The notes under the pieces were generated by a model. That model worked only from the letters and a program-made list of their open reading frames with translations. It was not told the DNA's origin and made no database searches. Made by a program: the position numbers and the translations under genes. DNA of 64,000 nucleotides from Lingula anatina (lineage: Eukaryota; Animalia; Brachiopoda), in NCBI GenBank assembly GCA_051362555.1, contig CM120649.1, forward strand, positions 17,870,567 to 17,934,566. The letters run 5' to 3'. This document shows positions 23,501 through 55,415 of the stretch, in pieces. How positions within the stretch are numbered: the stretch's first letter is position 1; the number at the start of each line of letters is the position of its first letter.

Positions 23501-24966
23501 TGTTACAGCTGGTTCCCGAAATGATTTCTTAACCTCAGGAGAAAAAACAGTACAACTTTGTTGCTTCAGTACTTGGAAACCCTGGCAAGTAGGGAGGAAT
23601 ATGTGCTTGTTTTACTGAACATTGTTTTTGTTGTTGTTGGAATACTTAAGTGCTGTCATTTGAACTAAATTACTTCTCTTGCCTGGTCAAAATATGGTAC
23701 AAGTACCAGTGTATTCACTGTAAAACTTCTTCAGGAAGTAATCATATTTGAAGGACTTTGCTTCAGTCTGTGATCTTTTCAAGGAGAAATTCACTGGAAC
23801 TTGAGATGTTGGTATCTGTGATCTGCTGCCTTGCCCAGATGAAAGAATCAACCAGTCATTCTGTGATATAACAATTGCTCGAAAAACTATCCTTTTCTTC
23901 GTGGCAGGGTGAAACTCAAGTCGCCATTATCTTTTTAGATAGTGTCTGTTCACAGGAATCCTTTACATTACTGCCATTTAAAAGTAGAAAAAAAAACTGC
24001 CCATCTCTCCAAAGAAAACATACTTTACATCTCAGAAAAAAGTTGTCATTGGAAACGTACATATATGTATTTCTCATACATAAAGATCAACTAAAAAAGG
24101 CCCAACTGGACACCACTGGCATTCACTAACATACAAAGAGCAACATTGCTCCTGCAGAAAAGAAAATAATCCAAAGGCAATGATTAGTCTTATTATGGAC
24201 AACTCATAACCGCAGTGTGACGTATCGGCAGGGAGCCAAATCCTGGAACGCTTTCAGAAAGCGCTCTCAGCAATACCAGACAACAACGCCTGAGAGTGCA
24301 GTATAACATTTCATGTTATCATATCTGCAGAGAAGTAAAGAGAGAGATAAAAAACTTGACCTTTTAATATGAGAACTAAAAGTCACCAGTGCAGGAGTCC
24401 TATGTTCAGATATTTCATTTATTTATGTGTGTGGGGGTGATATGATAAAAGGGAGAGGAGGAAAAAGTGACTTTTACTGAAGCTAATAAGTCAGAATTCC
24501 TCAGGTTGAGACCTTTTGTTCTGATTCATAATTTAACTATAACCTTTCATAAAAAATATAAAAAAGAAAGCTGGCTACTGTTCACACTTTCCTCTATGAT
24601 ATTTTTATGAAGAGACTACATGCCTACTCTAATTTCAAAGAAAAACCGAGCGTAGCATTACACAGCATCGCTAAGGGCACTGACATCACAACATAGCATC
24701 CTGCAAATAAGGCAGCGTGGGTTCTACTGTACTGAGATCTCACTGCCATATGCAGACACGCACGCACACACAGACCCTCTAGCCTCTTGTGGAAGTCTTA
24801 CCAGTCACCTTGCAGGAGCTCTGTGGTAAAATCACCTGTAGAAGGTGCTCTAAGTTAGGAAAATACTTACTCTGGGCCCTGGAATATGAAAAGAAGGGCC
24901 AGGAGACTGGATTAATATTTTAAAGAAATAAAAACAGGCACTGATTATCTCCACAGTGGTGCCAGC

Positions 24967-25101
24967 AACCTGGATTTTTATTAAATAATCAAGAGCATCC
25001 AGAGTACGGGGCACCTGCTGTTGTCCTACAAGAAACTTCCAGAATCAAGAACCTGGATAACTGTTGACAGAAGAAAAGTATCCAGAGTACGGGGCACCTG
25101 C
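24967..25101. repeat. 83-bp-period direct duplication with an identical 22-bp core
   Basis: ATCCAGAGTACGGGGCACCTGC at 24997-25018 and 25080-25101; AACCTGGAT at 24967 and 25050. Confidence 0.8.
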
Positions 25102-25651
25102 ACAGCGTTACACACACATGGTGGTGTATACTGATAATGAAGATGAGCAGGAATGGTGATATTTAGACAGACATGTGAAGAGCAGGTTATTTCTATCTGG
25201 CCAGCTGACTAGGCCAACGCTGTTCTAGTAGAAGACTCACTGAGAGAGAATGAGAGAGAGATTAACCAGAGGGTATAAGACAAGTGTGCTTGGATTTCAT
25301 AAAGATTCTTCTACTTGCTTCGAGCTCTCAGAGTCCAGAGAAGTACATACAGAATAGCGGTTAACTGACAGACTCAAAGCCAGCAAGTTTGTGACAAGGC
25401 TTTCAAAGTTTTTATTCATTTTCTTGCCAGTTTAAATAGTATTTGGGTGGTGGACACTACTATTTCAACCAAGCATTGAACTTTGCAATGTTGTGAAAGA
25501 GAGAGATGGTGACATCTCATTCTGGAAATTCGTTAAATTTGTCAGTTCAGTGCAGGTTTTACGTGGGAGTATCTCAGGGATCGCCTCCGTTGAATATGAA
25601 AGTGAAAGTGCCTTGTCATATTAGTGAAGACACAAGGTTGTATTCAGTATT

Positions 25652-25957
25652 ATGCAGATTAGCTATGCACCGCTTCAGTACGTATGCACACGCATCACGA
25701 TCTATCGCAACTGTCGCATAGACCTCCGTCTGTGCAGGACGATACACTATGGCAGCCAGTGCGCAGCGGGGAGATACCTGCCGCCTGACACTGCCGAACC
25801 GTGTGGAGCGATTCATTACGGCTTTTGTAGTGCTGTGACGTCATTGCCGTTACATTACGTTAGCAGTAACAATGTCAGCAGTAACAATGCCAGGAATAAA
25901 GCACAAAGACGAGAGGCAGTTTTGGAGGCTGATGAGATTGATTACATTGTGTTCAAG
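25652..25957 (+). CDS. Candidate alternative first coding exon of PP2A B''
   Basis: ATG-initiated 102-codon frame ends at a perfect donor AAG|GTAAGT in phase 0, compatible with exon 32159; locally CpG-rich within a CpG-poor intron; no homology recognised. Confidence 0.4.
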
Positions 25958-27938
25958 GTAAGTGAAGGACGTGGGTTACAATATCATTACAATGACAGCA
26001 TCAGTAACGTAACAGTCATTAAACATGGTGGAACAGTTTCGTGTACAGTGTCAAAATAATGTTGTCCTTGCTGCATTGGTACAACATTGGCTTTTAAGCT
26101 GTTAAAAGCTGTTAAAATATTCATGGTTTGTACATGGTTTCGGGATTTATGAGTTGTTGGACTGGCTTCAGTATTGTGACAATAATGTAATAATGTTGCT
26201 GCTGTAAAGCACAAAATGTATTGTTACATTGTACTAGAGGAAAACATGCCTGAGACATATTGTTTGAACACATAATAGCTGCAGCATTAACACTAAAAAT
26301 TTTTTAATGTAAAATTATTAAGAACATTGATACATTATGAATTTAAACTTTGCAAACTGGTAAATATCTAAAAAAAAAAATGTGAATGAGCAAGAAAGAA
26401 AGATTGTTTCTTTTATTCTCTGGGATGAACTGAATAATATTGAAAGGGATAATTGTATGCTCACTTCAGTCATATTTTCTTGGATTGGCAAAATCAAACA
26501 TGATCTACATACGTAATAGCACATACATGCAAAAGATATGGTATCTCTTAAATAGAACCTCTCTCTCATGGACTGATATGTAATTGAAACAAAAAAGCTT
26601 AATATGTTTTCTACTTATAACACATCTAAGAGACAAAAAAAAAAAAAAAAAAATTGTGTCACATCATTCTTACAGCATCACTAATATAACAAATACACAA
26701 GACATATTATATACCCAATTTGATAGCCCCAAGCTAGCTTAACCTGACAAATTATAGAGTTATTATGCATAATATTACCTGAACTTTTGACACCTAATAG
26801 GTGCTTGTACAGACGAGTTGATTTTTACGGTAATGGTTCACTAAATTTGCTCTGAATTGGTTCGGATATTTTCTGAAACAATGTTTTGTTATTGGTTCCA
26901 CTTCTGTAGATGTATGATTAAAAAATCAAGAAATTTTCTTGGATTTGGAGGTTTTTTTCTTTCTATTTAAAATGCTGTTTAGAAGTGATTATATTTGAAG
27001 AAAAGAAATGAAATATTGGTATTGGTGAGAAGCAGAATCATTAAATAATTACTTGTCTGTACTTAATTTTTTTAAAAATTTGAAAATTATTCTGGGTATT
27101 TACGTAAAATTATTAACTTTTTTCTATAGAAACAAAAACAATTTTAATTAAAAAAATGAAATATTAAAGTTGGTAACCTATTAAAATTATTGAGTAATTA
27201 CCATACACGCCCTGGGCTGTACTTGATACACGCAGGTATGTGAGGCAGCAGATTCAGGTTTGCTAACTCGCACTGAATTCAACTCAAATCGGCTTAGTAC
27301 AAAGATCTGAGCTTCTTGTGTCATATAAGTAACACGTACTTGAAGATAGCCCCAGAAATAAAACCCTGAACTCTGAGGTCAACTGGAAGTTATTTGATAG
27401 CCAGAGTCTGCAGATCATATTTGAAATATATACCATTGAATTGATATCTTTGTGGAAAGGAACCACACATCAAAAAGGATTTTTTTATCAACTGAAAGAT
27501 AGTTTTGAAAATCATAAATTTGCAAGTCATACTTATTACACACACACACACAGAGGAATATTTAATTTTCATTATTTCTTTTCTTGTGGAACCAGACATG
27601 GAAGACTTTCCTTCCTCTTTTTATTTAATAGTTTGAGACATGGTCCTCTTACTTACCACATTGTCATATCATAAAGACAGTCTGGAACCTCACACCTACA
27701 TTGAAAGCTTTCTTAGCATCTGCATTGACTGTATTCCAGTTGTAATATCCCTTACGTGTCTGACATCAGAGCCATCACTTTCACAATCATTGACATTAAC
27801 AGCATTCCACATATCAGACAATAAACGTATAAATGCTCATGATGGTTTCCTTTGAATTTTGAATGCTGTTAATCTAAAAAAAAGCTATTAGGTGTTACAT
27901 TTCATAGCCAGAACTAAATGCCTAGATTATGTGATATG

Positions 27939-34003: not shown

Positions 34004-34015
34004 GTAAAATCACCC

Positions 34016-34018
<3 letters not shown>

Positions 34019-34079
<61 letters not shown>
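34019..34079. repeat. (CT)n microsatellite
   Basis: Directly visible. Confidence 0.95.
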
Positions 34080-34081
<2 letters not shown>

Positions 34082-34777
34082 ATATTTAAAATAAAATGTT
34101 TAACTTTATCCACGATTAAGTTTTTCCAGTGGGTGTCAGTATTCTTTGAATTAAGACTTTAAGTATGGTGGTTATATGACGCAAACTGTTACTTAACCAG
34201 GTGAGAGAGGAAGTTGACTGCAATCAGCAGAGAGATCTGCAGGTGTGAAAACAGTTCTGTTGATCTTACCTGTCAGTTAGTGTCAACTTGTTCTAGGGTC
34301 ACTATTAAGTTCTGCTGTGGAGATAAGAATCTTGAGAAGACCAGATCAAGATGGTGGTTCTTTTCAAAACAGTACAACCAGTTAGTGTCACACTGTCTTG
34401 TAGTCTGGCTTAATCTCTTGTCACTTTACTTGAATATTTACAGATACAGTGATATTGGCTCTGAGATTTTATTGCCTCGGGTGGCTTTATTGTGGGACAG
34501 TAAGTGTCATGTATGGTGTCACCAGGTGCCAAATAGAGGTCCCAGCTTCTTTGTCAGATAAGATCCATTGTGCCTAAATATTTGTTGTTTGTGAAGTTCC
34601 CTGTGTATTTATAGCCTTTAATTAGTCAGGGTGTGAACAACATTGCTTCTTTTTGTCCTCCATTGCTCATCCTGGCAAGTCACCTGCAGGGTCCTGACAC
34701 ATTATTATCAACCAATTAAATTTAGGTATTAGGGTCACATGATATGTTAGCAGGTGACATAGTTTTTCACTTTTTCT

Positions 34778-34937
34778 CCAATGTGTTGTTGATTGAAAGC
34801 ATTTCCAGCCAATCAGGGAGTGAAGTAGGTCACCTTAGCCAATCAAATAAGAGAGGAGGAACTTGTTGACACATGTCAACAGTGTTTTATTGTTTGGCTG
34901 GTTTAAAAAGGAGGGGAAGACATTTGTGGCATCACTT
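34778..34937 (+). promoter_or_regulatory. Promoter of the nested intronless gene: three CCAAT boxes, palindrome, TATA-like box, Inr-like site
   Basis: CCAAT at 34778, 34809 (AGCCAATCAG) and 34839 (AGCCAATCAA), 31 and 30 bp apart; TGTTGACA-CA-TGTCAACA at 34864-34881; TTTAAAAAG at 34902-34910; TCACTT at 34932-34937, about 30 bp after the TATA-like box. Confidence 0.7.
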
Positions 34938-35063
34938 CAGTGGCAGACACTGACACCTCTACATTGGTTAACTGACAGAATTTAGGTCTTCCTCCATTTG
35001 TCTCTCAGTTCAAGATCAAGGCGTGCGTTGCTAAACGTACACTGTGTAATCTTATAATTCATC

Positions 35064-35462
35064 ATGTCTCTGCATAATATGTATGAAGAATCTGAAGGAG
35101 CAGGGGCCAACATCCATGATAGTATAGAGAACGACTATCTGACTGAGAGTGATGGAGACCAGCTGAGTGAAAAGATAGATATGGCCAGTGACACAGTCGC
35201 TCTGCTCAGTGCCCTTGCGAGGGACCTTCGCGTCAGGTACGAGAGGGCTCAGAGAACCAAGCGGAACAGCTACCTGTGCAAACTACGTATCTTGTTGATA
35301 GCCATTCAGGGCCTGAGGGACACCTTCTACGAGTACACTGTGAGGAAGTGTGACGAGCTGGAGAGAATAGAAAGGAGAGTTGAAATTGAGCAGGGGCTGC
35401 AGTCACTGGAATATGATGATGATGACACTGACTCAGACTTAGATGATTACAATGAATACTAG
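35064..35462 (+). CDS. Nested intronless gene, uncharacterised 132-aa protein (acidic termini, predicted two-helix core); not a histone
   Basis: ATCATG start context; GC-richer and protein-like compared with the surrounding intron; lies in PP2A intron 34004-35845 between a promoter-like block and a histone-type 3' processing signal. Confidence 0.8.
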   Translation: MSLHNMYEESEGAGANIHDSIENDYLTESDGDQLSEKIDMASDTVALLSALARDLRVRYERAQRTKRNSYLCKLRILLIAIQGLRDTFYEYTVRKCDELERIERRVEIEQGLQSLEYDDDDTDSDLDDYNEY

Positions 35463-35592
35463 TTGGTCACTCCATCTTGGCTTCTCAACATGGTGTTTAT
35501 GATCACTAGATACTGGATGGCTGTTAGGAAAGAGAGAGAGAGAGAGAGCAAGATAGTTTATCTAGCACAGATATTGACCTGTTCATTGCAGT

Positions 35593-35636
35593 AACAAAGG
35601 CCCTTTTCAGGGCCACTATCACTTCCCAGAAAAGCT
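35593..35636 (+). terminator. Histone mRNA 3' stem-loop plus purine-rich downstream element (SLBP/U7-type 3' end signal)
   Basis: AACAAA-GGCCCT-TTTC-AGGGCC-ACTA (stem-loop 35599-35614, 6-bp stem, 4-nt loop) fits the metazoan histone stem-loop consensus including both flanks; CAGAAAAGCT at 35627-35636 is at HDE distance. Confidence 0.85.
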
Positions 35637-35845
35637 AAAGCCAATTAATTTGCCCAATTTAAAAAGAAAGATTTTTTTCTGATTTTTTTTATTCATTTTT
35701 AAAAATATTTATTTCAGATTTAACAGATACCTGCCTTGCATCAGAGCTCACATATTAAAATATTTTAGAATTATTATCTTTATAACCACTGTTTCCTTTG
35801 TTTTCATCATACCAGTAGGTAAAATTCTTGAATTTATTGTTCCAG

Positions 35846-35920
35846 GATGTTGTGGACACACATCCAGGGCTCACTTTTTTACAAGATGCACCTGAATTCC
35901 ACTCTAGATATGTACACACA
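35846..35920 (+). CDS. PPP2R3B: PP2A B'' coding exon 6
   Basis: DVVDTHPGLTFLQDAPEFHSRYVHT (conserved HPGL.FL...PEF.SRY); TCCAG acceptor, GTGAGT donor. Confidence 0.95.
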
Positions 35921-42175: not shown

Positions 42176-43714
42176 TGCAACAAAACATTTAACTTTTAAA
42201 TCACTATTTTATATATTACTGACTGTATGTTTTCGAATGAATTCCCCCGTCTCACATTACCAATTATTCATAACTACATAAACTATTGCCTGAAATTTGC
42301 AAGCAAAATAAGATTTCAACTTCATGAATATATAATAAATGAATAATATAATAAGTTGGCCCGGGGTTACCACATTAGCGAGTCTTGCCCTCTACCTTGG
42401 CCGCACATTATTAGGTGCACTTTTTGCCAACACGACAGTGAAGATATGTGCCATGAATTACCCAGAAACACATTTGTGAACATTAGTGAAATATCAATTT
42501 GTTGGCCTGGTGGAGGGTAACCGTGTCTGGCCTGGTTGCTCGTCTTTGGATACATGTAGTCATAGATTGCTTTTTACTCGTACAAAACAATCTAAAAATA
42601 TATCTTCAAAATTTATAATGGAGATTGCTCTAGACGAAATAATGACTTCCAGTTCGGCTTGTTATAGGTGCAGTAAATATTTAAATACCCATATAAATAA
42701 TAATCAAACTCCATATCATCATTGTCTTTTTTATATACGCATTCAATGTTTGATGAAGATATTGCAAAGAACGTGTAATATTGCATGCCATATTATAAAC
42801 TACAAATGCACCTTCCAAAATAAGACACCAAACCGGAGAAAAGCACATGTTCATTATGTCAAAAATATAGAATATTCCTTGATCATAAAATAGAAGATTT
42901 AACATATAAAATAGAAGTATTTATCATATATAATTCCAAAGGTATAGACAACACAGGTGATCGTTTTAACCACAATAAAAAATCAGTGTTACATATCTAG
43001 ATATTACATAACGGGAATATTAAAGTAATGTTATCCAGTGCAAACAACAAAGATTTCAAAAACAAAATATCGCCGAAGGTTCTATAAGGTCCACTCTGAT
43101 CTCCTCTGGGAGATATATTTTCTGATTACATTTTCATTTTCTCATGCAAGTAAAGAAAAAAAAAAACACAGGAGATCAGTTTGATGTCGCCAACATAGGT
43201 CAAACAGAAGTGTTATGCAGCTTTAGCATATTATTAGTGTTGTTAAACACAGGAACCGTTCACTTGCGCTAGGCCTTAACCCGTGGGTATTTTCGTTACC
43301 CGTGAAAGCTACTTTTTATTTCCAGACATGCGTGAGACGTTTGTTAAGATACTTCATTTCATGTAGCGTGATTTGTGAAGCACATCATTCACGCAACTCG
43401 TAAATGAGACTTCTTATTCTCTGCCCCTCGTGAAATGAAGTCATTATACACGGCGATTTGTGATTTTCAGGATTTCTGATTGGCATTATCAGTGAGATAT
43501 TAATAAAGTTTTATTTACTGAAATTTGTGAATTGATCATTTTGTTTCCCTAGAAATTGTGATCACTCCCCAATCCCAATGGGAACTTCTGTTAAGGGCCA
43601 ACTCAAGAGTTCGTTTGCAAAGGCTCTGGATAAATTCATTTGTACTTTTGTATACTGTTCATCACCACCACTTCTATTTATTCGCGATTTAACTGTCAAA
43701 CCGTGCTGCCAATT

Positions 43715-43930
43715 TCAACTTATCGTTGCTACTGCCAGATCATGATGGTGCTCATACGTGGCCTCACGTGCAGTGAAGGGGCGGGGCTCCACGGTGATGG
43801 ACGCGGCGACTCGACCTTGACCTTGAAGTGACGTCATGTTGCTGCTGCCAGCAAGAGGCGAGACTGAGGTAGTCGGGTTGAGTTGATTGATCTGTATGGT
43901 GTCTGCATCCACATAGGCGATGGCGTACAC
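43715..43930 (-). CDS. mGluR-like class C GPCR, coding exon 4 (C-terminal tail)
   Basis: AATAG acceptor; VYAIAYVDADTIQ...AVATIS then stop; continues (YAPK)VYAI, typical of the end of class C TM7. Confidence 0.85.
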   Translation of the reverse strand: MYAIAYVDADTIQINQLNPTTSVSPLAGSSNMTSLQGQGRVAASITVEPRPFTAREATYEHHHDLAVATIS

Positions 43931-44215
43931 CTATTGTAATATGGTCAGTATGTTCAAACAAACTTTGTTATATCAGTTTCAATACTGGTATAATTATAAT
44001 AATTATGATTTTAGCTGTTATTTGTATTCTTGTTATTGTAGTTTAATCACACAAGTAATATGTTTTCCATAAATGTTAAATTTACTAAAATAATGAAATA
44101 AATAAATAAATAAAAAACTGAAAATTGAAAAGCATTTTTGTGACAAAATTCAAACTTAGTTTTAATTAATAAATAAGTAAGTAGATAAATAATAATAATA
44201 CGTTTAAATACTAAC

Positions 44216-44581
44216 CTTAGGCGCATACAGAAAAGCCAGCACAACTGTCGCATTCAGAATCAGTGCCACTGAGAGCAGCACCACCCTGAAGTAGGCCGCA
44301 GACGTGGTGAAGTAGGTCGGGATGAAGGCTAGCCAGATCACCAGGGTCGTGTACACACACATCGAGATAAACTTGGACTCGTTGAAGTTGTCTGGCAGTT
44401 TTCGCGTTTTGAAGGCGTAGAAGCTGCACATGGCGACAAGGAGGATGTTATAGGCAAGGGATGCGACGATGCCTTGTATGGGGAGCTTGCAGAGGAGTTC
44501 GACGAATTTTTCCGTCTTGACTGGCATGCGTTGTTCTATACCAGGAGGGTTGACCGCTGCTGTGATGATGCTTATGATAAC
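44216..44581 (-). CDS. mGluR-like class C GPCR, coding exon 3 (TM4-TM7)
   Basis: YAFKTRKLPDNFNESKFISMCVYTTLVIWLAFIPTYF, the class C signature; CTCAG acceptor, GTTAGT donor, phase 0. Confidence 0.95.
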
Positions 44582-44882
44582 CTGAGCGAAACCAATGGTG
44601 AAATCGAAAGTGAAAGTGCAAGTAACTTGATTAAAGGCACATTCAGTTTTTAAAAGTCCACTGAACCACTTTGTTTAATATTGAATTCGACTAAAATTAT
44701 TGAGAAAATTATAAAAAAAATAGCAATGAGTAAAAGCGTTCTGTACCTAGCTCCTATGTGGTTTATAGAAGACGGATAACTTTAAATATTTATCAATTTA
44801 TGTAATTATATAACAAATTAGTAAATAATCAAATATTAATTAATTTGTAGGAATAATTTAAATATGATAATGTATTACCTAC

Positions 44883-46394
44883 CTCTATCGTGATCAGCAA
44901 AGACGCTATAATCACTTGGGATCGGGGACTAACCAGTGGCGGCCTCTTTTTGGTCTTTTTGCCCGATGCAAAAATGCGGTAGATGCGATTCGTGCGCGTG
45001 AAGAGTGGCGCGTAAATCCAAGCGAAACTGAGGCTGAACCCGAAGTGCTCGACGTAACAGAAATGGTCCTCTGGCTTCGCAAGGAAGAAAATGGCGGTCA
45101 AGTAGCTGACGAACACCCCAGTGAGGATGAGGTAGGCTAGCTCTCTGCTGCAGGCTTTTATCAGTTTAGCGTTATTATGTCGAATGAAGAAGGCTAGAAT
45201 GAACGCTGCCAGGATGATGCCGATGATGCTGAAGGTGAGTATCGTGATAGCTAAACTGTCCCCCCATCTCATGTGTTCTGGTTGGACGCTCTCGCATGAC
45301 GTCAGACTTTCGACCGGCCACATCAGTTCTGGACACTCTTTGCAAGATGTTTGGTTGGATACGAGGTATTCGTTGTTGCGACATTTACGGCATTCCCAGC
45401 AACAAGAAAGCTCCTTCTGCAAGTAAAATTCACCTTTTCCACAGGGTTTGCTACATACTGACTCCGGGGTCTCAAGACTCACCGATTCTGAGGTCACCCA
45501 AATGATAGGGTTCTGATCGACTAACTGCACGTGACCGACGTCAGCGTCCCACGAGGCCACAGCGACCTGTTTGTAGTCGGACGATTTATTCTGCAACTGC
45601 TCTATGTCATACTGGGCCAAGATGTCTCCCTGTTTGTCAAACTTAACTCGCCCAATATGCCCCTGGAATTCCACTTCCAACAAGTACTTTAAAAGCAAGG
45701 ATCCGTTGATACATTTGCTGACATTTTGACCCACAACTCCTGGGCACCTTTCTTCGATGAGGCTGTGCAGCGCATGCGCAAAAACCAAGGTGGTGTCAAT
45801 TACCAAAGTGGCAAAACTCATCGGAGCGAACCCGTTCGCTTCGGTCATTCGGTTATCTTCGTCACAGGTCGGCTTCCCGGTGCCGTTTGTCCAGGAGCAG
45901 TCGAAGTACAGTTCCCAGTGCTCCATGAAGTATGGGTTGTCGCTGCGGATGGCGGGGTGTAGCCCTTTGAACCACGTGTTAAACTCGCGCGCATAATCAA
46001 ACCCTGGCCTAATGGTCAATATCCCCTCCGCGGCGTCCGCGCTGTCCCCCAAGTCGGCGATTCCCACCGACACCCCGTCGCTGCCGATCCACTGGAACAC
46101 CCCCATGGCGTCTGCCCGCTTCACCGCTTTAAACAACTCAATGGCCGGCGATATATGCATTATCAACAGCACTGCTCGGGCGTTGCGGGCATTGAGAAGC
46201 ATGCTGACGGTGAGGTCCCAGTCCGACTGCTGGAAGCTGTCGCTGACCACCCGGTCCACGGCGATGCAGATGCCGAAGTCTTTGGTCAGTTTGCGCACGG
46301 TCTTGGCGGCGGTCTCGCCGTAGTCGCTGTCCACGTAAAGAACGGAGACGTACGTCCATCCAAACTTGTTCAAGATGTCTACCATGGCTTGGAC
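44883..46394 (-). CDS. mGluR-like class C GPCR, coding exon 2 (rest of Venus flytrap, cysteine-rich domain, TM1-TM4)
   Basis: AMVDILNKFGWTYVS, DYGE, WIGSDG, PESVCSKPC..CCWECRKC, IKACSRELAY, RTNRIYRIF; CCCCAG acceptor, GTAGGT donor; 504 codons. Confidence 0.96.
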
Positions 46395-47380
46395 CTGGGG
46401 GAAGTAAAGAAATACTGGTGCATTATTTACTGCTTGAGTTGTATGAATATTATCAGGCAATCAGATAATTTAGTACATAAATGAAAGGGTTTTATTTTTC
46501 AGTTTATTCTAGCACCCATGAAATAGAGAAGGTGACCCATGACTGGTCTATAGAATGCTTAGTGATGAACATGCAGCCTCTCTAATGTAACACTTATAAG
46601 GGTTTAAAACTTTCATGAAATTTTCGATGAACTTCGAAACTGCTCAGTTTGCTCTGCAAGCTGACCCATAATTTGTATTTAAAAAAAATCTTTAAAAATG
46701 TCTACCTAAGCATTGTATTTTGACCCACGGAACCTCTGCTTTCACATAAGAGCAATCACACACGTAGAGCTTCCTTTTAAAAAAAGATGTCTTAGTGATC
46801 GGCCAGTAGAAACCTTTATAATTCACTATAGCAGACCTTGGAACACACAGAACCACTTTAAGTGTCTCGACTTTCTTGGAAAAAAACCTGGCTGTAATCA
46901 GCTAAATGGCACTTGTTGGTCAGGTGAAGTGACCGTGGGCACCTGTCCTACTTGTTGACATTTCTGTATACGACACCCGGGCATCTAGGGACAGACGTCC
47001 AATCTTCAATTTCCAATCTTCAATTTCCTTAATGTTTAGTGAAGAACACTTTGCACGGATTCTTTCACGGCATAACAATATTTGGTTCTTCACAAAGATT
47101 GCTCTGGCGAACTGATTTTAACGACACCAAGACAAAGACGACGGAATCTACAGTTGATGATTCCTTTTTACAAATTATTTGTAGTTTTGAAAAATAAAGA
47201 GCATATTCATTATTGTGTCTCAATATGCGCACAAATTTCACTAACGTTATATTTACTAAAAATATTTAAGATTTTCACAAGATGTGGTTATATTTGGCAA
47301 TTTATAAAATCCCACGAGTACGTCTTATGTTTTAAGCATCCTCAATGTTGCTACTTTTTCAAAACGGTCACTTCCTTTAA

Positions 47381-47718
47381 AGGGATAATAACTCTTCATA
47401 TGAGATCTATATTTCACAATGAAAACATTGTGAACAACTCGTAGAAATACAATATATTCTGTTTTACCACAAAAACGGCAGTTATAGCTATTATTCTGAT
47501 ATCTGAGCTTGTCTTCAGACCACGTGACCTCCATTGATGGCTATACTCTGTTATAATCTCTTAAGAGATTTTAACAGAAAACCAAACTTTTTAGAAAAAA
47601 AAACAGGGACTAACTTTGAAAGTAAATATGGATTCATGAACCATTGGTAAGCACGGAAAAGTTGTTGTTTACTCCAGGAAAATTCATTTTTTGGCCAAAA
47701 CGAAGAGTTATTATCCCT
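47381..47718. mobile_element. Kolobok-like MITE family C, copy 2
   Basis: TTAA|AGGGATAATAACTCTTC ... GAAGAGTTATTATCCCT|TTAA; colinear with 28858-29195. Confidence 0.9.
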
Positions 47719-49209
47719 TTAAAATGGAAGTTTAACGTGCAGAACGATTATTTATCGCGTTCTGTAATCAAATGTGTTCTGTCACTAAGGCAAAGGTATA
47801 ATAAAAAAACACTGCCGTTACAACCCCTATGATTGCATCCATCTCACTGCTAAATCACCAGTCGCTAGTGTCTTCGCCCGTCAATCAAATTTTGTCATTA
47901 ACTGACTACCAGCGAGCCCTGTGATCAGAAAGTACTAGTACTTCTTCTGTACTCTCTACCTGGGCGACAGATTGATTTCCCACTAGGTATTTACAGAAAT
48001 GTCACTGGTTAATTCTTGGCACTTTTCAGCACTGTGGAAAGTGCACGTAATTAATCTGTGTCCCAGGTAGAGGGTACCTTTTGTGCAACATCGGTTGAAA
48101 GTACATCGCGTTCTTGACACCTTAACGTGACCTCAAACGTCGACGCCTTGAGTTGTTTATCAGCCTCATCGGATCGCCGGCCTGCTTCTGGTCACTTTCA
48201 TTACATCTATCTTTCGTGAAAAGAGATATCAGTGAGTTGAAAGGGTGGCCACGTGCCAAGAAGGACGCTGAGATTTCTCTTTACTTTAGAAATGAAGGAT
48301 GAAACGCGCCTTAAATGAGCGAGAAGGAACAAAAAAATGGCGCCATTCTTTACGATAATGGATAGAGAAAGCCTGTCATTTTAAAATGAACTATTTGTAA
48401 TTATTTTAATTCAGCTGTATTTGTTCAAAATCTTATGGCGCAGAAAAGGCACGAAAAAAGGCATACGAAGTAAATAAAATTAATTGTCTTACTTGTCTTC
48501 AATCACGTGTAACTGCCCATGGTTGACATGGTTAATTTCTTTTAAGTAATCCACACCATTGTCAAAACTATGATAAAACCATTCTTTCGTTAAGATTCAT
48601 AGCGATGCAGTTCAATCCTGCAGATACTCAAATCAATTCTATAAATGGTCTGTGAATCCGAAGCAATTCTCGCTAAATAAATGAGTATTTTGTTTTTGAG
48701 TTTTTCTACGCCATTACCCCATGCTTCAGTAACGCAAGAATCCTACAAAATATCCGAAGTTTGTCGACAACCGATCTAAGAGTTAAAGAAACCGTGTAAG
48801 TCCTACAGTATTGAGCTATCCATCTGATTTACTTCTTGGCCATGCCACTTGATGACGAATTACTCTTACTTGTGCACTTACGACAGTATTTGCGGTGTTT
48901 ATTCTCCGTTTGATAGTTTTCTTTTTTTGTTACATAGTCAAAGGTATATAGCTGTTAAGATATTTTATAGCTTTGGAGCTTAGATACTGTGTCCAGACAT
49001 TTCTGTGCGTTCAAAGTAGGAAGGATTCTTTGACAGTTAAATAATAAGCTTACAAATACATCTTTTTTATCGTTTATGTTATTTCATTGGTTCTTATGGT
49101 ACCTGCTTCCTTAACTGGTGAACGTGGTTCAAGTATTCTATTCAAAGATTCTCTGAAAAGGTGCGAGTTGAATAAATGAGTAATTGAATCGCTTTTTGAT
49201 GCTTTCTTT

Positions 49210-49424
49210 GACCCCATTTCCAGAGATTAGATCGATCTACTTTAGATCGACCTAACTCCCTGGGGGTTCACGCTAAATAGCTGTCAGCCGAGCGGACACG
49301 AAAGTTAATTACCCCCGTACAGCTTGTAGTAGGCGGGACGGACATTTAAGCCGGATTATTTGACAGTAATCTAGTGAGACTCCCCGCGGGGATAGATCTA
49401 TCTAAAAGCTCTGGGAATACAGCC
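49210..49424. mobile_element. MITE family D, copy 1
   Basis: About 210 bp near-identical to 62987-63201; imperfect TIRs ATTTCCAGAGATTAGATCGATCTA ... TAGATCTATCTAAAAGCTCTGGGAAT. Confidence 0.85.
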
Positions 49425-52407
49425 TATAATTCTCAGATTCAACATAATCTTTCTCACTTACTCAAAACATTTTCTGGGCACATTTTGAATAACATCTTGA
49501 CACTATACCATCTGTATACATACTTCTTCAACATTTGAAGACCCGTATATTGGAGTTGCCATTTTAAACTAATTTCGTTAAATTTCATTTTAGATGTAAG
49601 TACCTATTTCATTTTTATGAAAAAAACTCAAATGACTCAAGATTATCTAAACAATTGAGCTTTTAAGGATTCTAGTCAACGCCAAGTTAACAACTTTTCT
49701 TTATAATTAAGTCCAATAAAACATCATTTTGGTTTCAGGAAAAACCTATGAATTAACACTTGTAGAGATTTGCTGATTTTCTTGATTTTGGATAATTCTA
49801 ACGATTGGCAAAAACAACGTGAGTGATTGGATTCTGACGTTCTTTGTTACGGTAATGGGAAGTGTGCAGGCGTGGTTCAATCTACTAAATTGTTATGTTG
49901 TTTTTATTTCCATGCACACAAAGCCAATGGAATTTATACAAAAGCTATCCGCACGCAGCGTAAACAATAACGGTAAGACCTGAAGAAAACTGGAGACACC
50001 GAACAATGTAAAGAAAGACGTTTATTGACGTTTATGTCGTATGAAGTTATCTATTAACACCGATTATCTTCCTCTTTATTTTCAATTTCCGAAAGATGAT
50101 ACGATAATTTCTGTCGAAGAAGTTAGTAGCCATCCGTGGCAACATAAGATGCTAAATGCATATTTCCTTAAAACCCTATCTTGTGGCTGTAAAATGATCG
50201 AATCGATTTAAAGTGCAGAGAATTAACGAGAAAGCGAATACGCCTGACATTCAGCAAGAACATGCACGGCTTCTTTGCAATTCACTAAGTGTCTGTTCTA
50301 GATACTTATACGAGATGAGAAGAGTTTGTCACTGTTACACATCTCAAGGAATCACCATTTTCTGCTGATCCTTCTGTTACGGAAAATGATTTTATGTGTT
50401 TATGGTGAGGGTAAGAACCAGGGTTATTTGAAGGGGGAACGTCCGAAGATGCTCGCTGAAGGACCCCGAAAATTTTTGGTATTTTAGAGGGCGAACGGTG
50501 CCATTTGGAACGGTTTAGAACAATGACTCGGCTAGTCAAAATTCTAATTAGAGGAGACCAGAAATCGAAGGGGGTGGGGGTGAGTCAGGACCCCCTGGTA
50601 AGAACGTCCTTTCTGCTCTTGTCTTCAAGAAGACACCTTTGAAATCACGCCAGGAATAAAGAGTGGGTGGTGAAGTGAGAAAAACTTTTCTGTAAGGCAA
50701 AGACTACAATTTCTTAGACACTAGATATACTGTTGTCAAACCACACAGTATTAAGAGAAACGCGTACGTGGCAATATTGAAATGGACTGCAGAGATTACG
50801 GCCATTAGGTTGCATAAATGACAAATTAGTCGGTGATTTCCTGCCCAAACACACCTAAACCAACAAGGACGTAAAGATTGAATATGAAGATATTATGTCA
50901 GTTAATCTACCTCTGGCTATGTCGTGATGCTGATCCTAATCGACCGGCTTAATGGCGTTTTTGCCGGAGATTTGCTGACCAAACGCACCATCCCCTAAGT
51001 CACAAGATAAATACTGATCTACGTCATTCTCAATCTTAAGTGTCACCTTCAAATCGTTTTTTAAACAGATATCGTTTAAGGTGTCCTTTGATCAGGAAAC
51101 ATAAACCTGATCTTCCTCCTATTCTGTCAACTTTCCTTTTTTTCATTTTCATCTTAATAAAGGGCGGGGTAGGATGATAATAATGACGCAAAAGTGGAAC
51201 CGTTCGGTTTCGTGTTTCTCGTGTCGGAACGTGCGCGCGTGTGTGCGTGTGAACATCATTAACTGAAATACTCCCACGTGTTTCATGGGAGTAGATTATG
51301 TCATATATGTACGAGGAGGGCGAGAACGGTAGATTTAGACAAGCCTTTCTTCTGCTTGTTCAAGGTTTCTTTTTTACCAAATAAACTTACACTAATGTTA
51401 AACAGGCTTCTGAATGAATACGACTTCTAAGGCTTACAGTTTCATAATAGGCTATTTATGACCACTCTGTCTGTGTAGGGATTCTGTAGAAGGTCTTAAA
51501 GTACATTTATTTGATATGGGCAGAGACAGAAGTTCAGATCCGTAAATTGCAGTGTGGTAAAGTGTCATCTGGTGTTTCTGTCCACAAGTAATCTCGGGTC
51601 CATTTCAGGTTTTGGACTAATTAGTCGAGAACGCTGACTTCGTAAAGTTTTTTTTTTTTTTTTTTTTTTTTTGTGAAATTGCTCTAAGAGTGTTTTCCAA
51701 GAGAGTGGCCCGTAATACGCATACAAAAATGCACCATTCTTGCCACTGTCTGAGCACATGCAGATAAATACTTAAAAAATCACAAGATAGGTGGCCGTTC
51801 AGATTGTTTGCGAAACGCATCATAGTCTGCTAACCTTCTATGCTGTCTTTACTACGGCAGATTTCGGACTGTGGCCGTTTTGTTCTTGACGCAGCCAAGT
51901 ATGATTAATGTCCAATAAACTGCTCTCTGCTAAAAGTTATTGTCACATTGTTATCTGTGTAATGAATCCCGCATCCCGACGGATTCTTCCAAGTATATAT
52001 CATGTAGGACAAAGGAAAAGACCGTGGTTCTAACACTTTGCATTCGAAGAAAATTTGAGAATTAAGAATTAACATCCTTAGTATACTCGCAGATGAGACG
52101 CACCTAAGGGGTGCAAGATATGGATCGGTGTTATCAGATTTCATAAACCTTCGGAAATATGTCTTGTTTTCGAGTGACCCATTCCAGCAATAAGAGACTT
52201 CATTTCGACAAAAAAAATTATGGATATGCATCGTTACTTTTATGCAGCTTCCAATGGCATTTGGACCTTTATATAAAATATATATATAACGATTCATTGT
52301 TTCTTATGATATAAAGCAGTACATATAAATAATACACATGTATTTCATAACGTTAATTGATATAATACATAATATATTCTATACTGGGGCACCAAGGTAT
52401 GACTCAC

Positions 52408-53028
52408 CTGTAGTTTGTCCGGTGGTACAACCCTCAGAAAGTACGGATACTTCACTTTATCACTGAGGGTGTCACTGGTGGACGCATAGCTGACCTGAGG
52501 GATGTGAAACAGCGTCAGGAACCCTGCGGAACCGATGCTAGCCACGCTAAACCCTGCGCCCACAACTCCCGCCACGTGGAAGTAATCTCCACTTAGAAGA
52601 GAGCTCTCATTCCCGCCACCGACACCGGAAGTGTGACAGCCGGTCTCGTTGTAAGGCGCGAACTTCATCGACTGCGCCAAAGCGGTGCTTTCTTTCATGC
52701 ACGTGTCCAGCATGGCAAAGCCGAGGGTTACATTCGGAAGGAGCTCGGTACTGTTATTGATGAGCTCGATGGCAAAGCGCATGGCCTCCGGTAGCTGCAG
52801 CGCCGCCTTGATCCACAGGGAGTCCCCGCAAGGCTTCGTGGCACTGTATTTGGTGATTGGGAACAGCCCGCCAAGTATGACGTCACCATTCCTGACGTAA
52901 GGCCTGTCGGGAAGGTCCGGAACTGAAATGCGCCCCTCTGCCACGTGTAGTATTATTATTATGCCGAAAAGTAAAACCGGCATGACACCGGTGTTTGCTC
53001 TTGTCATTGTGTGCTGTGATAGAACCAT
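52408..53028 (-). CDS. mGluR-like class C GPCR, coding exon 1 (signal peptide and N-terminal Venus flytrap)
   Basis: AAAATGG start at 53028 (the ORF-track start at 53061 is TTG; alternative ATGs at 53007 and 52983); hydrophobic leader, GDVILGGLFP, LLPNVTLG, LDTC, IPQVSYASTS, YPYFLRVVPPD; donor CAG|GTGAGT. Join 53028-52408,46394-44883,44581-44216,43930-43715 = 904 aa. Confidence 0.93.
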
Positions 53029-55415
53029 TTTTGTGACTTTTTTAAACGCTAGCTCATTCAATGTAAGCTTCCCTCTGTGACTCTCTGATAATGAAGGTTT
53101 GTCTCAAAAAAAGCGTCCATAGGTCTTCCTCAATGTTTCACATACTGTGATGTGTCCGTGATCTTTTCTACCTCAGACCTGGAACTGAGGTGCGCGTTAG
53201 TTAAATTTTGAATTTTTGAATTTTAGGAAAAATCCTCCTGTACGATGGTCATAGTGTCTTTTCTTCAGCTTTGTGTAAGTCACCAACATGTGACTAATAT
53301 GTATGTTGTATAACAGCCTTTCCTGCTCCGCCTTCCTTAATGTCTGAATACTCTCTATAAGTCCTTTTATTTTCAATGCAGGAGCGGACTATTAATCAAT
53401 AATATCCTGACAATGTATTGAAATACTGTAGCTGAAGTTTGGACCTTAATATATCTCCATCTGTAGTGTATGGAACACTCTATGTTATTCAAACGGTAAG
53501 CCTTGTTTATAATCCCTTCTGCTAAATGCCAACCGTCTTTTTACTCTGTATATTGTCCAAAACACATCAATGCTGTCATTTTGCTCAACTGGCACAAAGA
53601 GCAAAGAAGGACACTCAACCAAAGTCCGCTGAAAGCTGTAAAGTCACCTGTTAATTTCCCACGTGCATCACGTCTAAAATGTTCCGATCATAAAACATAT
53701 TTAATCGTCTTCGTTACCTAGCGCACTGTACATGTGCCGGTCAGCTTTTGTATCTGAAATGACAAAGATGACATCCATTTAAGCACCAGAGCCGGATATT
53801 AATATCAAGACCTCTACAATACAGATACTAAACAAATTTCATAACCCAGAGGTAAACAAAAAAAACGACGGCAGCGGAAGTCTTCAGTTTGCTTGATATG
53901 TCGTCCACGAACCTTTGGATCTTAGGTCACGACGAATATTGTAACATGTAAGTCTTATTGTATTACATTGTGTTTTACAACAAAGATAAATGAGACGAAT
54001 AGAACTGCAGTGTAAATTGGGTATGTTGCTGAGTTAAGCTTCAGTTTAGCATATTGTTAAACATGTACATGAACATCTTTAATTAGAGTATTGTAAAAAT
54101 CAATGACAAGTTGTTGTTTTATTGTAAGGGCCGTTTGACCCAAAGCTAAAGAATACAGGTTCGTGACAAATCGAAATCTTTTCCGTAGTGAACACTGAAA
54201 GTTGTCAGCACGATGAAAGTATACAAAAAAGGTTAATACAAAAGGTAGGCCTACGCATGTTTCATAAATGCGAAAAATGTCTAAAGCCATCAGTTCGTTT
54301 GCTGTGCACACGTACTTTTCTCTCTCTCTCTCAGCGTTCACCAGCCTGCCATTTCAACCAAAGAGTAGACTAATAGGTGTTTTGTTGTATTTTCAAAAGA
54401 ATAATTGCCAATTACTGGGCCCCCAACACGAAATGTAATCACTGCTTAATAAACCACCCTTTCCCTGCGGAAATCACCGATGCTGTTAATGTGGCATTAT
54501 AGAGTTCTGAAAACATTGCAGAACCCTGTGCCCATCTTTAGGAACAGTCGATAATTGGACAACGATAATTCGAGAGTTGAGAAATATGATAATTACGTAA
54601 CTTCCTAAATTCCACATAGACCGTAAAAAATACACAGAGGAAGAAGATGAGGAAACATAAACCATAAATATAGAACTTGCAATTTTCCGTTTTTTTAGGT
54701 TATGAACTACCTGTATGTGAGTAGTTTTAACGAAACAATATAGAAGTGTTGGTAGATATAAGAGAAAGCGTTTTTAATTTTGTTTGTTTGTTTGTTTGTT
54801 TTTCCTGTGTTATATACGCAAAAAAGATAAAGAATAAAAAAGAAATAGAATAAATAAATATTCAGCCATCTGAATGCTGTGAGCTTGTTTTAGTGACAAA
54901 AAATAGTAGGTAAATGTTTTGTTGTACAATATAAACGCATAATTAAGTGTACTTAAAACACAGAAAACGATCATACATGTTGTAACTATAGTATTAAAAT
55001 GACCTTGTCTTGAATGGAGTCTTGTCATGATTTAAATAACCAGTTGTACCAGTGGTGATCATGAGTAGCTGTCTTAGTGCACATAAAATTAAATCTTTAC
55101 ACATACATGTAGTAAGTTATGCTCTGTATATACTCTGTATATAAATTCAACACAGAACCAAACACATTGTTAGCAGTGTCCGCATGAAAGAACGAATGAC
55201 GCAAAGCATCTTAAAGGACACACGAAACATAACAAATTCTGGCATTTTATATTGCTCTCAGAAATGTTTTGTTTTTTTAATTTAGAAATGGATTAAAACC
55301 ATTAAATACGTTTCAGGTTCTTAAAGATCTTTGAACAAGGTGTTGTTTTTCTGTTTTGTTTCTTTATCACGTTATGAACGGATACAGGAGTATCTTTGCC
55401 AGAGTCACGCGGTAA

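Follow-up and report, generated by a model that had tools for sequence, protein, structure and literature searches.

According to PMC4604434, no known cellular mRNA lacks a poly(A) tail except those of replication-dependent histones, and SLBP CLIP in human cells yielded no real non-histone target. In the available text of a 2026 survey of the loops that follow histone genes, a G-C pair in the second position of the stem, together with a U at loop position 3, are the two diagnostic features of the stem-loop, and the median distance from stop codon to loop is 30 nt; non-histone genes, molluscs and annelids are unmentioned in that text (10.64898/2026.10.14.759114). The available portion of a 2026 review of histone gene organisation contains no passage on non-histone loops (PMC13525598). 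According to excerpts of two further papers, bivalve histone genes bear the loop and a purine tract (PMC6210712), and a Hydractinia histone cluster contains 5S, U1 and U2 (PMC5011920).

In this study, a 64,000-nucleotide stretch of DNA from Lingula anatina (the window) was analysed, and a small gene nested in an intron was compared with these systems. Like replication-dependent histone genes, it has a short intronless ORF, a putative TATA-type promoter, no AATAAA, and a stem-loop of 16 nt that shows both G-C pair 2 and loop U3, followed about 11 nt behind by a purine tract; some of its relatives are arranged in tandem or neighbour H3, 5S and U1. Some relatives resemble histone replacement variants, being loop-less, AATAAA-bearing and sometimes intron-containing. 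Unlike histone genes, the gene encodes a product without a histone fold or Pfam match, modelled as two long helices, and the family has TGACA-marked promoters and many fast-diverging paralogs. The Lingula copy also differs from histone genes in standing alone in an intron with its loop 136 nt from the stop codon. It is intact but divergent and belongs to an unnamed family of lophotrochozoan proteins that are small and predicted to form a two-helix hairpin; it is probably a real gene and a non-histone client of the SLBP/U7 pathway. No description of the hairpin family was found in the literature covered, which is thin for subscription journals.

The nested gene and its host

The ORF ran from ATG to TAG as a single open frame encoding 132 aa (Table 1). 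Every protein segment quoted in the preliminary description was present in its translation. The ORF lies on the same strand as its host, which encodes a PP2A B'' subunit. One exon of this host matched human PP2A B'' chains with an E value of 1.7e-23, and the exons on either side of the intron were covered by RNA reads; loose read ends at 35843 bore the last letters of the upstream exon. An exon nearby was 100% identical to a protein of Lingula anatina, which assigns the window to this brachiopod.

ORFs of such length occurred 0.25 times per shuffled window, so that length alone is compatible with chance. The codon-usage test was weak: the score was reached by 0 of 5000 non-coding stretches but by 55 of 2000 shuffles of the ORF, and a true host exon scored lower than the ORF. 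The ORF was regarded as a gene because of homology and cis-signals. Position -3 relative to the ATG is an A, a feature shared by 79 of 91 family genes, and no upstream ATG was present in 34900–35063. Within the intron, no terminal repeats or target duplication were found around the nested gene, and the host intron showed no DNA similarity to the family loci collected. The protein was absent from the protein collection in an exact look-up with three alternative starts.

Other features of the window were also recorded. A GC-richer stretch of a long host intron (24700–26100) held a 135-aa ORF (25652–26059, forward strand) and a 52-nt direct repeat. On the reverse strand, 43700–53030 held a gene like those of metabotropic glutamate receptors, which has an open stretch of 518 codons and is annotated in public records; it and the PP2A B'' gene stand tail to tail. 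Positions 1–62 and 801–862 formed a 62-nt inverted repeat, 92% complementary and 738 nt apart, which is perhaps a small non-autonomous transposon.

Table 1. Features of the nested gene and its surroundings (positions in the window).
Feature	Position	Strand	Basis or remark
Host intron, PP2A B'' (PPP2R3-type) gene	34004..35843	+	GT..AG, 1840 nt; contains the nested gene
TGACA/TGTCA sites (14), TALE-homeodomain-type, including three CAGT(T/A)AGTGTCA copies	34134..34977	.	count
Two CCAATCA boxes, 30 nt apart	34809..34845	+	sequence
TATA-like TTTAAAAAGG, non-consensus	34902..34911	+	162 nt before ATG; putative role
Initiator-like TCACTTCAGT	34932..34941	+	about 30 nt past the TATA-like box; putative start site
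Intronless ORF, divergent member of the unnamed lophotrochozoan helical-hairpin family	35064..35462	+	homology, profile score
Conserved core, residues 28–115	35145..35408	+	predicted helix 28–65, short turn, helix 68–115
Acidic C-terminal tail, 10 D/E per 17 residues	35409..35459	+	low-confidence in model
Histone-type 16-nt stem-loop GGCCCTTTTCAGGGCC, GGCCCT-TTTC-AGGGCC	35599..35614	+	RF00032
HDE-like purine tract CCAGAAAAG	35626..35634	+	11 nt past the stem, in register with family CCA(A/G)AAAGA

Identification of the protein family

A full HMMER scan found 126 relatives of the Lingula protein at E ≤ 0.001, the best of them 37–40% identical across residues 32–128. It was the sole search to reveal the family: single-sequence word search, Pfam, ESM Atlas (whole protein and core), peptide scans of metagenome and viral contigs, and a search of PDB sequences gave no match to the Lingula protein. 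A family profile was built from 74 rows, namely the query and 73 of the 126 relatives selected for a length under about 145 aa. The profile matched 158 proteins; family members were mostly 95–145 aa long. The matches with species names were hypothetical proteins of gastropods, bivalves, octopus and a nemertean. From gastropods to bivalves, the genera were Elysia, Batillaria, Nucella, Biomphalaria, Lymnaea, Arion, Mactra, Mytilus, Mizuhopecten, Dreissena, Pinctada and Sinanodonta; the other named matches were Octopus and Lineus, and a second nemertean, Tubulanus, was found additionally. One family entry from a parasite transcriptome was read as host contamination.

Against a profile built without the query, the Lingula ORF scored 85.8 bits, and the next-best stretch of the window scored 5.4 bits. 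The copy aligned gapless and stop-free over the core, with the lowest score among the full-length members scored. The profile consensus was RY.RA...R.SFRY.LRL.L...EG.RNM.Y.YA. Six nearly invariant residues (R58, Y59, A62, R75, G83, and Y91) were all retained in the Lingula copy, and the family residues F38, C42, Q44, R71, Y72 and A92 were missing. The number of conserved columns retained was 10 of 23, compared with 16–23 in other members; those members had been selected with a pattern in which some of the columns are fixed. The Lingula copy formed the longest end branch (2.52) of a 112-row family tree, in which no other row bears a brachiopod label.

When Pfam models were run over 127 members at E ≤ 0.01, no single model matched more than 3 members, and Snf7/ING profiles matched none of the 127. 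One of the 127 members matched a PHROG (E 8e-4). No fitting Pfam, NCBIfam or PHROG family was found, which bears out the earlier statement that the protein cannot be placed in a named family. The earlier label "uncharacterised" holds in that the protein is unnamed, but it has to be corrected in that the protein belongs to a large lophotrochozoan family. The preliminary description had also considered, as results that would speak against it, a protein without homologs, or a viral or transposon fragment; the 126 relatives exclude the former, viral and phage searches gave no match, and none of the viral contigs scanned carried the family motif.

A mollusc subfamily with the motif TGVKMMYHHY (P0210, P0147, P0185, P0188, and P0164) was 92–98% identical over 62 residues and spanned octopus/cephalopods, gastropods and bivalves. 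A loop was present in neither of the two loci of this clade (L040 and L087). The subfamily may be a slow-evolving, polyadenylated form.

Histone-type 3' end

The Rfam Histone3 model matched the window at 35594–35638 with 35.5 bits (gathering 34), the sole gathering-level Rfam match of the window, and the stem-loop pattern gave 0 matches in 100 shuffles. The folding energy of the stem-loop was no better than that of shuffles (z -0.86). The stem-loop GGCCCTTTTCAGGGCC starts 136 nt past the stop codon, and the stretch between them contains an AG microsatellite; the family median is 35 nt (range 13–173), with 6 of 65 genes at 102 nt or more. The Lingula spacer and HDE scored 7.4 bits (family median 11.4, 10th percentile 2.4), and 144 of the window's 127,908 positions scored at least as high. 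No AATAAA was found at 34600–35850, and one ATTAAA at 35754 lies beyond the loop. The 3' signal of the histone-type mRNA control claimed earlier was present in the Lingula copy, as in 65 of 92 relatives. The stem-loop and the HDE-like tract make cleavage by SLBP and U7 snRNP, in place of polyadenylation, the likely way in which the end of the Lingula mRNA is formed.

Metagenome contigs were scanned with the family motif. The scan gave 98 stretches, and 96 loci were retrieved, each encoding a member. Patterns like the one used for selection match about 40% of the representatives (48 of 126 for a closely similar regex), and this choice of loci biases the subfamily make-up and lowers dN. Eight of 100 family genes were excluded (no stop codon, or less than 150 nt behind it), and 92 were scored. 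A stem-loop lay within 200 nt past the stop codon in 65 of the 92 genes (32 by the strict pattern), against 0.51 in shuffles; at 400–600 nt, it was found in none of 47 genes. Loop-bearing clusters numbered 48 of 72 at 90% identity, 17 of 29 at 70%, and 9 of 10 at 50%. The hairpin is close to being its own reverse complement, and the antisense control of the loose pattern (57 of 92) is for that reason invalid; the strict pattern gave zero antisense matches.

Four of the six stem pairs changed on both sides, with 38 such cells versus 15 in shuffles, counts that are inflated by kinship among the sequences. The G-C pair at stem position 2 was invariant in 62 of 62, and loop U3 was present in 61 of 61. 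An AAAG(A/T) tract was located 12–17 nt downstream in 50 of 61 distinct flanks. With the Rfam model, 5 of 20 loci (18 of them chosen for a strict loop) reached gathering and most others scored 23–34 bits; among 20 strict-loop-negative loci, 10 matched below threshold, behind the family gene.

AATAAA within 200 nt was found in 15 of 27 loop-less genes versus 6 of 65 loop-bearing genes, which are not independent of each other. The loop-less genes L073, L078 and L094 seem to contain introns, so that their stop codons were miscalled; in L073, a GT-AG intron was shown, and the true stop is without a following loop. The loop label required 13 changes on the family tree, which indicates that the loop is spread across the family and was repeatedly lost or gained. 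Paired consecutive stem-loops after one family gene were observed in L030, L081, L089, L092 and L047; their spacing was 22–29 nt in four loci and 255 nt in L047.

Promoter signals

The number of TGACA sites in the kilobase before the Lingula ORF was the maximum over all 1-kb stretches of the window. Across 64 distinct family promoters, TGACA/TGTCA was the top 5-mer, with 170 occurrences versus 83 in shuffles (maximum 102 in 30 shuffles), and its density was 8.9 per kb versus 3.2 downstream. Consensus TATA was also enriched in the family promoters (57 versus 13.6 in shuffles). CCAAT was rejected as a family-wide feature (55 versus 39 in shuffles, maximum 55).

TGACAG is given as the MEIS consensus in an excerpt of PMC11584712. 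The accessible parts of two other papers state that spiralian-specific TALE genes function in blastomere specification (PMC8524836) and that non-canonical TALE genes are present in Lingula (PMC6118893). The promoter TGACA sites may be bound by TALE factors, as their sequence suggests. A germ-line TALE factor is equally compatible with these sites.

Predicted fold and charge pattern

With the 74-row alignment, AlphaFold gave helices at residues 28–65 and 68–115 with a mean pLDDT of 83.9; without the alignment, pLDDT was 76.8. Blocks over residues 31–100 reached 96–98, and the tails 55–70. The modelled turn was formed by residues 66–67, within RTKRNS. The model of two long helices with low-confidence acidic tails agrees with the helical hairpin and acidic disordered tails proposed in the preliminary description.

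Residues 1–33 contain 9 D/E and residues 116–132 contain 10 D/E, both with zero K/R, and the whole protein has a pI of 4.36. C-terminal acidity, as charge only, is common to the family: 70 of 82 members were at -5 or lower, and the Lingula tail is at -11 against a median of -7. The long acidic N-terminus was not shared by the rows inspected. The earlier reading of acidic tails therefore stands for the C-terminus and not for the N-terminus. In the highly conserved mollusc subfamily, the tails were not strongly acidic. Conservation sits in the basic, aromatic helical core, and the earlier emphasis on the tails is corrected here. The family core has a median net charge of +8, and the basic tip of the Lingula protein (residues 57–78) has a net charge of +6, equal to the family median. 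The conserved Arg, Tyr and Phe residues are grouped at the tip and past it.

An acidic low-complexity tail on a small folded core is found in nucleoplasmin, NAP1, ANP32E and HMGB, and in HMGB the core is basic. The Lingula protein resembles HMGB in its basic core and acidic tail, but differs from all four in having no sequence or clear fold match to them. Two long helices are also found in the N-terminal part of ING3/4/5, in α1-α2 of ESCRT-III (Snf7/CHMP), and in SMC, Rad50 and prefoldin, at Z 10–11.7. The identity to these proteins was 5–16% without a profile match, and such Z values are typical of any long hairpin; unlike ING and ESCRT-III, the family has no PHD finger and no further ESCRT-III helices. 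ESCRT-III proteins also combine a basic hairpin with an acidic tail.

The best Z of the fold search was 11.7, for helical hairpins, and values from 11.7 to 9.9 were spread over 50 unrelated entries. Foldseek with the single-sequence model, a check proposed in the preliminary description along with AlphaFold, gave no match at E ≤ 0.001, and its weaker matches, like those of VIA, were generic. The fold matches were unrelated long hairpins at similar scores, and no function was assigned from the models. No solved histone chaperone was among 7 PDB sequence matches at E ≤ 10. Matches to BAP31, tropomyosin and keratin (E 0.008–4) covered helix 1 only and were rejected as coiled-coil noise. The EG.RNM motif resembles the HR1 motif EGAENL; this likeness was dropped, as no HR1 match was found in 127 members.

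Expression and selection

Four RNA runs (X1, X4, X5, and X7) had zero depth in the bins 35012–35767, with no reads on the ORF or loop; the host exons were covered and spliced in the same runs. The analysis covered about 6% of three of these runs and 25% of the fourth, all from unspecified tissues. Two of the libraries were labelled poly(A) or oligo-dT; the other two were nearly without intron reads and were probably likewise tail-selected. Zero depth on the ORF is what a silent gene would give, and equally what a message without a tail or one confined to certain stages would give. In a search of sequencing runs, no RNA run was listed as a holder. Run X1 gave a few reads at 34508–34885, from either strand, within the promoter of the nested gene; the other three runs gave none there.

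The dN/dS ratio was at least 1 in 0 of 267 family pairs. It was 0.015–0.28 in 16 close disjoint pairs, and 0.22–0.74 in 12 distant disjoint pairs, probably inflated by saturation. A ratio near 1 among homologs, considered in the preliminary description, was not observed; the family is far below 1. Purifying selection acts on the family, a result that concerns the family rather than the Lingula copy. In a neutral-decay simulation, 15% of the runs in which indels were left out kept a core with no stop; once indels were allowed, 0.4% kept a core with neither stops nor indels. The probability of an untouched loop was about 0.0004. The simulation presumes a consensus-like ancestor, and its results are compatible with recent pseudogene formation within a brachiopod subfamily that had diverged beforehand.

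Genomic neighbours of the relatives

Of the 96 loci, 3 had H3 directly upstream of the family gene, and 2 had 5S close by. In these mostly short loci (median 1575 nt), where adjacent long ORFs were judged by eye, no element ends and no neighbouring transposase or RT gene were found. In L005, L059 and L041, the family gene lay 1.1–1.4 kb behind H3 on the same strand. The three H3-adjacent genes had no loop of their own in the sequence covered, which is less than 150 nt past the stop in two of them. Four loci carried two family copies each.

In a scan of 185,579 prokaryote genomes, only two contigs matched, both in bacterial metagenome-assembled genomes. Judged by U1 snRNA or microsatellites, these contigs (L100-L107; L103) would be animal DNA. 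CBDHDT010000127.1 (L100-L107) consisted of seven tandem 2.14-kb units that are >99% alike, each with a U1 snRNA, a family gene with a histone loop, and a 5S rRNA on the opposite strand. Three contigs of the viral collection (L097, L098, and L099) contained a histone H4 motif, and two of them carried a full H4-like ORF. In one H4-bearing viral contig, the neighbouring ORF is presumably capsid-like.

Proposed mechanism and alternative explanations

The gene would be transcribed from its own intronic promoter, and its message would be cleaved a few bases past the stem, remain without poly(A), and depend on SLBP for translation and decay. For the family, this course is highly probable; for the Lingula copy, it is held with less confidence but still as the probable one. 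The mRNA would likely be made in short bursts in fast-dividing cells. The cis-signals would point to coupling of the gene to S-phase or the germline. TALE homeodomain factors might drive the gene in cleavage-stage embryos or germ cells, which is given a chance slightly short of even. More tentatively, the protein might be needed in bulk during chromatin assembly and might bind DNA or the acidic nucleosome surface through its basic, aromatic tip. By analogy with HMGB, the acidic tail could then mask the surface bound by the tip or shield histones, an equally tentative step that is taken together with tip binding. No fold match stood out, and the role proposed for tip and tail draws on charge and gene design. 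DNA or nucleosome binding by the family protein is a guess.

The lack of reads in 4 of 4 runs and the absence from the protein collection could also be explained if the Lingula copy were a duplicate inserted into the intron that is now silent and in decay, the family itself being real with histone-type ends. Such a duplicate would suit the most divergent member, with 13 of 23 conserved columns altered and a long, microsatellite-containing distance from stop to loop. The gapless, stop-free core, the perfect loop and the HDE-like tract make it unlikely; the TGACA signature of the family is retained at its strongest, and neutral decay of a typical member would seldom spare all these features. That the loops merely hitchhiked by duplication beside histone genes, unused behind polyadenylated messages, has the lowest probability of the explanations considered. 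Compensatory changes, invariant diagnostic positions, and fixed HDE spacing with a narrow stop distance across divergent subfamilies argue against it, as do the 13 label changes on the tree and the H3-adjacent genes, which themselves show no loop; 27 of 92 members are without a loop, many of those with AATAAA, as unused loops would lead one to expect. The family could instead be cargo of a mobile element or virus that borrowed a histone 3' end, its dispersed and nested copies being selfish. Numerous paralogs, tandem pairs and the intronic site are consistent with such cargo, which is nevertheless improbable given an intron without terminal repeats, target duplication or DNA similarity to the collected loci, the lack of the motif in viral contigs, the single PHROG match in 127, the 92–98% identity of the mollusc subfamily, and strong purifying selection.

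The chaperone-like role suggested in the preliminary description concerns the protein. A histone chaperone that is co-regulated with histones and binds H2A-H2B or H3-H4 through its acidic tails would be compatible with the RNA and promoter steps above and would differ solely in the protein's job. The histone-type 3' end, the H3 linkage in 3 of 96 loci and the acidic C-terminal part of 70 of 82 members would agree with this role. It is considered unlikely, since sequence conservation lies in the basic core, the tails of the conserved mollusc subfamily are not strongly acidic, and the 7 PDB hits include no solved chaperone. A non-histone client of the SLBP/U7 pathway, with its conserved part in the helical core, is the reading preferred here for the Lingula gene.

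Conclusions

In the full reading, an ancient multi-copy lophotrochozoan non-histone family would be a second client of SLBP/U7. It would range over molluscs, nemerteans, brachiopods and probably annelids. Its messages would be untailed, its genes amplified in H3/5S/U1 arrays and activated by TALE factors in early cleavage. It would include a slow-evolving, loop-less "replacement" form, and its product would be a bulk chromatin protein missed by poly(A)-based transcriptomics. Taken jointly, these points are possible but doubtful. The TGACA-rich promoters are candidate direct targets of spiralian TALE factors. If the reading is true, a conserved, covarying non-histone family would break the histone-only rule for untailed mRNAs, and poly(A)-based annotation would have concealed a multi-copy gene family across a large part of the animal kingdom.
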